Assembly: GCA_964016885.1 (NCBI GenBank) | Contig: OZ024747.1 | Span: 77,376,001-77,440,000 of the forward strand | DNA from: Eledone cirrhosa | Taxonomy: Eukaryota | Length of the DNA stretch: 64,000 nt | Direction: 5' to 3' | Shown: piece after piece, positions 8,681 through 58,827 of the stretch | How positions within the stretch are numbered: position 1 is the stretch's first letter | How the letters are laid out: each line of letters begins with the position of its first letter | Made by a program: the position numbers and the translations under genes | Notes under the pieces: model-generated | What the model was told of the DNA's origin: nothing | What the model saw: the letters and a program-made list of their open reading frames with translations, nothing else | Database searches by the model: none

Positions 8681-8858
8681 CCTGTATGTATGAGCAGAAC
8701 ATCAATGAGTGGTGTTACACTGAAGATTGAAAAATCATGCAGCACATCCATGGAATGTATAAAAGCGAAAAGAAACAATCCAGTTCAATGCAATGAATGG
8801 GAAAATGGCACATCTTGTGTTAGTTGTTGTGGCACGGATATTTGTAATTGGAATGATG
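8681..8858 (+). CDS. aGPCR exon: C-terminal part of a Ly6/uPAR (three-finger)-like domain
   Basis: ctacag|CCT...GATG|gtaagt. Translation [59 protein letters not shown] has 8 Cys and ends in the LU hallmark CCxxDxCN. Phase 0 to 1. Confidence 0.85.

Positions 8859-58827: not shown

Follow-up and report, generated by a model that had tools for sequence, protein, structure and literature searches.

The gene described here runs through the whole of the window analysed, a 64-kb stretch of the 3.0-Gb genome of Eledone cirrhosa (OZ024747.1, G000:C7:77376001-77440000), and overruns both of its ends. Within the window, all 15 exons between positions 8681 and 58827 are bounded by AG and GT and can be joined without a frame break into a product of 688 aa with no stops, as the original prediction had claimed for the chain that starts from the exon containing CCGTDICN. 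That prediction had also announced a 7TM region, of which the window exons encode TM1-TM4 only, while TM5-7 and the tail lie downstream. We examined 100 kb on either side of the window and identified eight additional exons, six upstream and two downstream, among which was the exon with the first LU cysteines that had been expected upstream. The first 22 exons yield 1,052 aa without stops and the candidate last exon adds 26, resulting in 23 exons and a protein of ~1,078 aa. The predicted order is signal peptide, LRR, LU, SEA-like, HormR, GAIN/GPS, 7TM, and PDZ-type tail. The gene is intact-looking, all of its exon junctions being predicted. Exons outside the window are listed by contig coordinates and those inside it by window positions.

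1..64000 plus exons outside the window (+): whole gene, from splice-site scans, tblastn, and in-phase joining
77342652-77342881 (+): signal-peptide-like stretch (by eye) and LRR N-cap, 33 kb upstream of the window
77348946-77349017, 77358444-77358515, 77366431-77366499 (+): three LRR exons, from splice scans, tblastn, and in-phase joining
77368137-77368294 (+): LRR C-cap, from splice scans, tblastn, and in-phase joining
77372009-77372100 (+): first half of LU, Cys 1-4, phase 1 in and phase 0 out, ~3.9 kb upstream of the window
8681..8858 (+): C-terminal half of LU, Cys 5-12, phase 0 in and phase 1 out, from Pfam, HMMER, and PDB sequence match
12677..12798 (+): SEA-like exon 1, in phase; domain 44-45% identical to homologues P0011 and P0035
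21537..21595 (+): SEA-like exon 2, from the in-phase chain
25977..26134 (+): SEA-like exon 3, from the in-phase chain
27758..27881 (+): HormR (HRM) exon 1, Pfam HRM E 0.055, below cut-off
28926..29074 (+): HormR exon 2 with the beginning of GAIN, from the in-phase chain
35364..40256 (+): GAIN exons 35364-35586, 37303-37450, 39233-39394, and 40122-40256, in phase
47611..47760 (+): GPS exon with H-L-T consensus and tethered-agonist-like TSFALLM, Pfam GPS E 3.8e-16, motif alignment
49552..58827 (+): TM1-TM4 exons 49552-49667, 51176-51299, 56119-56263, and 58755-58827, in phase, Pfam 7tm_2 on three of the four
77445134-77445531 (+): TM5-7 exon, Pfam 7tm_2 above cut-off
77448440-77448519 (+): candidate last exon ending T-K-L-stop, one of two candidates and the least secure exon

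The LU domain is split over two exons. The second of these (8681-8858) is preceded by a pyrimidine tract and AG, followed by GTAAGT, and open in one frame, with CCGTDICN near its end. The pattern C-x(2,5)-CC-x4-CN occurred a single time in a six-frame scan of 264 kb around the gene. Three DNA-like runs from one sample cover this exon with no differences, and their coverage crosses the exon borders in a DNA-like manner. The first LU exon displayed 45-58% identity to seven of the nine homologues used as queries. Because the LRR module precedes it, LU is internal to the protein; the claimed order of LU ahead of SEA-HRM-GAIN-7TM stands, but LU does not form the N-terminus. The LU, SEA-like, and HormR modules are each flanked by phase-1 introns, which is compatible with the phase-1 exon shuffling that had been put forward, but is no proof of it.

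Canonical lengths and phase are retained in all three LRR exons. Within the protein, the LRR region ranks among the most weakly conserved (20-28% identity to homologues), and such divergence could reflect a decayed binding tip. By eye, two of the three LRR exons are without the usual ladder asparagine. At the other end of the protein, the TKL of the candidate last exon would be a PDZ-binding-type C-terminus, and the same type of end is found in P0011 and P0035.

Positions 8400-8615 belong to a repeat of very high copy number in the DNA runs, and most of the intron between SEA-like exons 1 and 2 is taken up by a tandem array (12978-20848, 7.9 kb) in which a 37-bp unit occurs ~214 times (90% matches). 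Broken retrotransposon-like frames, by eye reverse transcriptase or endonuclease-like, lie in introns at 3600-8600, 10100-12000, and 54100-57900.

Homologues and copy number

A HMMER search with the LU exon retrieved 23 proteins (E<=0.001), of which 22 are members of the family; the other, P0022, is a polyubiquitin and was dropped as spurious. Among the 23, LRR_8 was found in 14 and GPS or 7tm_2 in 7. The LU and SEA-like regions of this receptor family escape Pfam, with none of the 23 proteins matching an LU or SEA family at E<=0.01. Species were looked up for 20 proteins, namely P0035 and 19 of the 23, and 17 of them belong to Octopus vulgaris, O. sinensis, or O. bimaculoides. With single exons as queries, word-index protein searches gave no matches, and a search with the LU region of P0011 kept only P0011 and P0035 among four candidates, which does not establish the range of the family past cephalopods.

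One could suppose that LRR-LU constitutes a separate gene or a secreted isoform and that its join to SEA is an artefact of prediction. Eight of the 22 homologous models are without the continuation into SEA, skipping to HormR or GAIN, repeating LU, or ending; some of these stop at or soon after LU and bear names such as 'decorin-like' or 'ly6/PLAUR domain-containing protein 1-like'. Against this, LU runs on into a SEA-like start in the remaining 14. Furthermore, P0011 (1,155 aa) and P0035 (1,161 aa) are encoded on contigs no longer than 4.4 kb, which leave no room for introns and are thus likely spliced transcripts; they have the same LU-to-SEA junction as the gene. The intron that follows LU held no candidate for a GPI-type terminal exon at the scan threshold, and read-through into it meets a stop after 10 residues. 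A separate gene or secreted isoform for LRR-LU is therefore highly improbable in our assessment, and the claim that the LU exon belongs to the same gene as the receptor is supported by the in-phase chain and by homologues that keep the predicted junction. Given the predicted splicing into a receptor and the next intron, which lacked a terminal exon candidate at that threshold, we discarded a GPI-anchored Ly6/Lynx protein. A secreted three-finger toxin was likewise discarded, since LU lies inside a modelled receptor of ~1,078 aa.

Over ~950 aa, the E. cirrhosa model shares 40-46% identity with full-length members, and this full-length sequence homology makes membership of the family clear. Its placement relative to the Octopus expansion is less so. 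A quick tree of 15 sequences, unrooted and with no outgroup, places the gene with P0011 and P0035, apart from 12 Octopus sequences (SH-aLRT 99). At odds with this grouping, its 7TM is nearer to O. bimaculoides P0013 (67% identity) than to P0011 (58%).

The genome of E. cirrhosa appears to hold one copy of the gene, although counts from our searches of this genome are lower bounds. The LU exon had one match among 12 candidates and P0004 one credible match among six, while the next best matches of the TM5-7 exon were 31-43% identical. The GPS family gave 10 scattered matches among 39 candidates. A second LU match (L023) was rejected (E 0.022, four stops).

Domain composition and fold

Pfam was run on 15 exon pieces, namely 14 window exons (21537-21595 was excluded as too short) and the upstream LU exon. 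The curated cut-offs were exceeded by GPS (E 3.8e-16) and by 7tm_2 on exon 56119 (E 4.6e-6). Two further 7tm_2 pieces, HRM (E 0.055), and UPAR_LY6_2 on exon 8681 (E 0.047) fell below them, the last with 14.3 bits against a cut-off of 31.5 but scored on half of the LU domain only. The other nine pieces had no Pfam match. The receptor is of the secretin type, as both exon 56119 and the TM5-7 exon score above the 7tm_2 cut-off. Pfam GAIN is weak and appears in 2 of 23 aligned members; the GAIN region is 37-49% identical to full-length homologues, and the GPS consensus H-L-T lies beside TM1.

The LU domain comprises 79 aa with 12 cysteines and CCGTDICN, which fits the expected eight core cysteines, C-terminal CC-x4-CN, and length of 60-90 aa. 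The cysteines lie at positions 211-286, with gaps of 3,5,8,7,17,6,11,9,3,1,5, and all 12 are conserved in 14 of 15 aligned homologues. By analogy, six disulfides are predicted. Twelve cysteines are also found in human Lynx2 (LYPD1) and Lypd6/Lypd6b (6ZSS, 6ZSO). Positions given in the available part of PMC7582953 translate into Lynx2 gaps of 3,9,9,8,17,6,11,9,3,1,5, so that the spacing of the last eight cysteines (Cys5-Cys12) is identical to ours. Unlike these single GPI-anchored domains, the E. cirrhosa LU is internal, and its loop I is shorter. The best PDB sequence match of exon 8681-8858 is Lynx2/LYPD1 (6ZSS, E 0.0063), and homologue P0004 has the same best match (E 0.0056).

The fold was approached through P0004, which is 55% identical to the gene in exon 8681-8858 and was modelled from a 23-row alignment (mean pLDDT 69). 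Three-finger folds fill ranks 1-36 among the best 50 structure matches of this model. The closest solved structures include Lypd6b (Z 7.5, rmsd 3.4, 81 residues aligned), Prod1 (Z 7.4), Lynx2 (Z 7.3, rmsd 2.9, 79 residues), PSCA (Z 7.3), and Lynx1, and ectodomains of TGF-beta receptors score within about one Z unit of them. Foldseek agrees with the three-finger fold, at E-values > 0.001. The model also displays a long helix ahead of loop III, a feature in common with Lynx2 and Lypd6/Lypd6b. The three-finger assignment made by the original prediction is thus well-supported by a homologue model with Z < 8. In a full-length model of P0011 (mean pLDDT 50.7) the LU region reaches a pLDDT of 33-49, and an ESM Atlas search provided no usable match, its best score of 0.79 being a lead only.

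The P0011 model displays the ferredoxin-like beta-alpha-beta-beta-alpha-beta order of SEA over ~110 aa (residues 319-429, pLDDT 53-68), between LU and HormR. There was no Pfam or PDB sequence match to SEA, other sequence searches were blank or spurious, and a further comparison of this region gave only LRR rows among the matches listed. We therefore write 'SEA-like': the claimed SEA agrees in predicted element order and position, but not in sequence matches. For the GSVVV-type autoproteolysis motif and the furin motif of SEA, both described in PMC6954182, the search pattern GS[VIL][VIA] and a furin-type motif were each found in the SEA-like region of none of 16 sequences (our model and 15 homologues). 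A polybasic furin-type motif is found in the HormR loop of P0011 (473-474) and P0035 (479-480), and is absent from the E. cirrhosa gene and from three Octopus proteins. The best PDB sequence matches of P0011 are ADGRG6, ADGRG2, and ADGRG4, and its best Foldseek match is the Gpr126 ectodomain 6V55, which supports the claimed ADGRG6-like SEA-HormR-GAIN-7TM stalk.

Relation to known receptors

We take SSF57302 to be the 'snake toxin-like' category. Statements on the publications below refer to the portions of them that were available. Ritschard et al. 2019 (PMC6408891) described a 'group 3' expansion of adhesion GPCRs as octopus-specific, with 21 octopus sequences and one from bobtail squid, LRR being present in 5 of the 22. 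They reported expression of the octopus-specific groups in axial nerve cord, suckers, skin, and gills of O. bimaculoides. Their Table S3 contains a CDD 'LU' hit at 371-447 of A0A0L8HDZ7 (E 6e-8) and SSF57302 at 136-215 of A0A0L8GYR2, although the accessible text of the paper does not mention an LU domain. Three entries of our homologue clusters (A0A0L8FLR8, A0A0L8GYR2, and A0A0L8HDZ7) are group 3 rows of this table; A0A0L8HEX5 and A0A0L8HDD6 were looked for in it and are absent. The E. cirrhosa gene shares LRR, GPS, and 7TM with this group, whose members go by database names such as 'ADGRG6-like' and 'GPR126-like', but differs from it in being apparently single-copy and in having only three diverged LRRs.

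In starfish, LU domains have been reported within ADGRG2-like and ADGRG6-like receptors (PMC9410279, PMC11595613). LyAr2 (XP_033635706.1, 'ADGRG2-like') has one internal LU at 224-305 of 1,113 aa and XP_033635539.1 ('ADGRG6-like') has one at 186-244 of 1,022 aa, as in our gene. These LU domains are LYPD6/Lynx2-like and sit in an adhesion-GPCR ectodomain, the likeness resting on LU. Receptors combining LU with 7TM have been described from echinoderms, molluscs, and arthropods (PMC13719153). The legend of Fig. 2 in that work lists LRR, GPS, and 7TM GPCR among the domains, so the figure may show exactly this architecture. The suggestion that the pairing might be undescribed is not supported: LU has already been paired with adhesion GPCRs in these three publications, Table S3 of PMC6408891 has an LU row, and the family is known from octopuses. 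Novelty is limited accordingly, and the receptor does not represent a new type of system. In the literature outside subscription journals, we found neither a functional study of an LU-bearing adhesion GPCR nor any text that gives the LRR-LU-SEA-HormR-GAIN order in full, and the available part of a 2026 review of adhesion GPCRs (PMC13197933) does not mention Ly6, three-finger, uPAR, octopus, or molluscs.

A further close counterpart is vertebrate ADGRG6/GPR126 (6V55, PMC6954182), whose SEA-HormR-GAIN-7TM stalk is matched here by SEA-like, HormR, GAIN, and 7TM parts, and which is the top sequence and fold match of P0011. Its tip consists of CUB-pentraxin, whereas our gene has LRR-LU, and the furin site of the human SEA (PMC6954182) is without counterpart here. 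We rejected the gene as an ADGRG6 orthologue defined by a CUB-pentraxin tip, since LRR-LU is present in its place.

Proposed mode of action

We propose, with a probability of roughly 65%, that the gene encodes a self-cleaving touch or adhesion sensor, in which an LRR-LU tip that binds a cell-surface or matrix protein is mounted on an ordinary tethered-agonist adhesion GPCR. The in-phase exon chain, the domain order, the intact GPS consensus, and the 12-Cys LU pattern are its observed part. By analogy with what is known of adhesion GPCRs (PMC6954182), GAIN would cleave itself at H-L/T and the two halves would remain associated. The LRR-LU tip would bind a protein ligand on a cell surface or in the matrix. 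Ligand binding, or a pull on the outer arm, would then expose the tethered peptide or reshape the arm, and either change would switch on G-protein signalling (PMC6954182). In the gene, neither the GPS consensus nor the TSFALLM peptide is disrupted. LRR-LU would fill the position of CUB-pentraxin in ADGRG6, and would thus act as a protein-binding module, not as a released modulator.

The main rival to this reading, doubtful yet deserving attention, holds that LU serves as a spacer or hinge, kept rigid by its disulfides, and determines whether the ectodomain takes a closed or an open shape, with the ligand bound by the LRR alone. The activity of Gpr126 is set by ectodomain conformation and by the linker before SEA, which is the position of LU (PMC6954182), and LU is retained in our family while the number of LRRs varies widely between homologues. 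However, identity outside the cysteines is higher in LU (33-49%) than in the LRR region (17-26%), as expected of a binding surface, although the LU figure is inflated because the homologues were chosen by LU similarity.

The original prediction had raised a toxin-like modulator, tethered or shed, as one possibility. In this form LU would be a Lynx2-like domain, either tethered or on a shed N-terminal fragment, which binds nicotinic-type channels of the same or a facing cell. In its favour are the solved structures nearest to the P0004 model, the Lynx2-like cysteine spacing, the same speculation made for starfish LyAr2 in PMC11595613, and the expression of octopus-specific groups in nerve cord, suckers, and skin (PMC6408891). 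Yet LU lies ~490 residues N-terminal of TM1, tied to LRR and SEA at its two ends, and shedding at the GPS would free the whole ectodomain and not a lone finger domain. No SEA or furin cleavage motif would free LU, which makes a shed modulator unlikely. Moreover, a common fold is no proof of function, as the scores of the TGF-beta receptor ectodomains illustrate, and the grouping of LyAr2 with Lynx2 was called irrelevant in the available part of PMC9410279. A 12-Cys domain of the Lynx2/Lypd6 type, far from the membrane and devoid of a release motif, does not sustain the earlier claim, and we regard channel modulation by LU as improbable.

A bolder version, to which we give equally slim odds, is that the Lynx2-type finger lets the family grip nicotinic-type channels across or within cells, for example the sucker chemotactile receptors, which are presumably nicotinic-derived. 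If true, a mechanosensitive GPCR would be coupled to a channel, and the single-copy gene would represent the state before the octopus expansion.

The gene spells out a full ectodomain (LRR, 12-Cys LU, SEA-like, HormR, and GAIN) for a receptor family that has undergone expansion in octopus arms and skin. Being intact and apparently single-copy, it offers a convenient handle for a ligand search.

Variation among related sequences

Modules are skipped or duplicated in the Octopus models P0001, P0002, P0005, P0007, P0012, P0014, P0016, P0019, P0020, and P0023. The variants include LU twice, the SEA-like domain twice, and SEA-like or HormR missing, and one has a C-terminal Death domain. They may stem from splicing, paralogue variation, or annotation error. 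Meanwhile, P0005, P0006, P0015, and P0018 combine LRR with LU but have neither GPS nor 7TM. Two of them are named 'chaoptin' and 'decorin-like', and the four may be secreted paralogues of the ectodomain or the product of split annotations. Elsewhere in the E. cirrhosa genome, a cluster of 14 intronless secretin-type 7TM frames lies at G000:C2:117.7-122.6 Mb, and perhaps corresponds to the Methuselah-like group 4 expansion described in PMC6408891.
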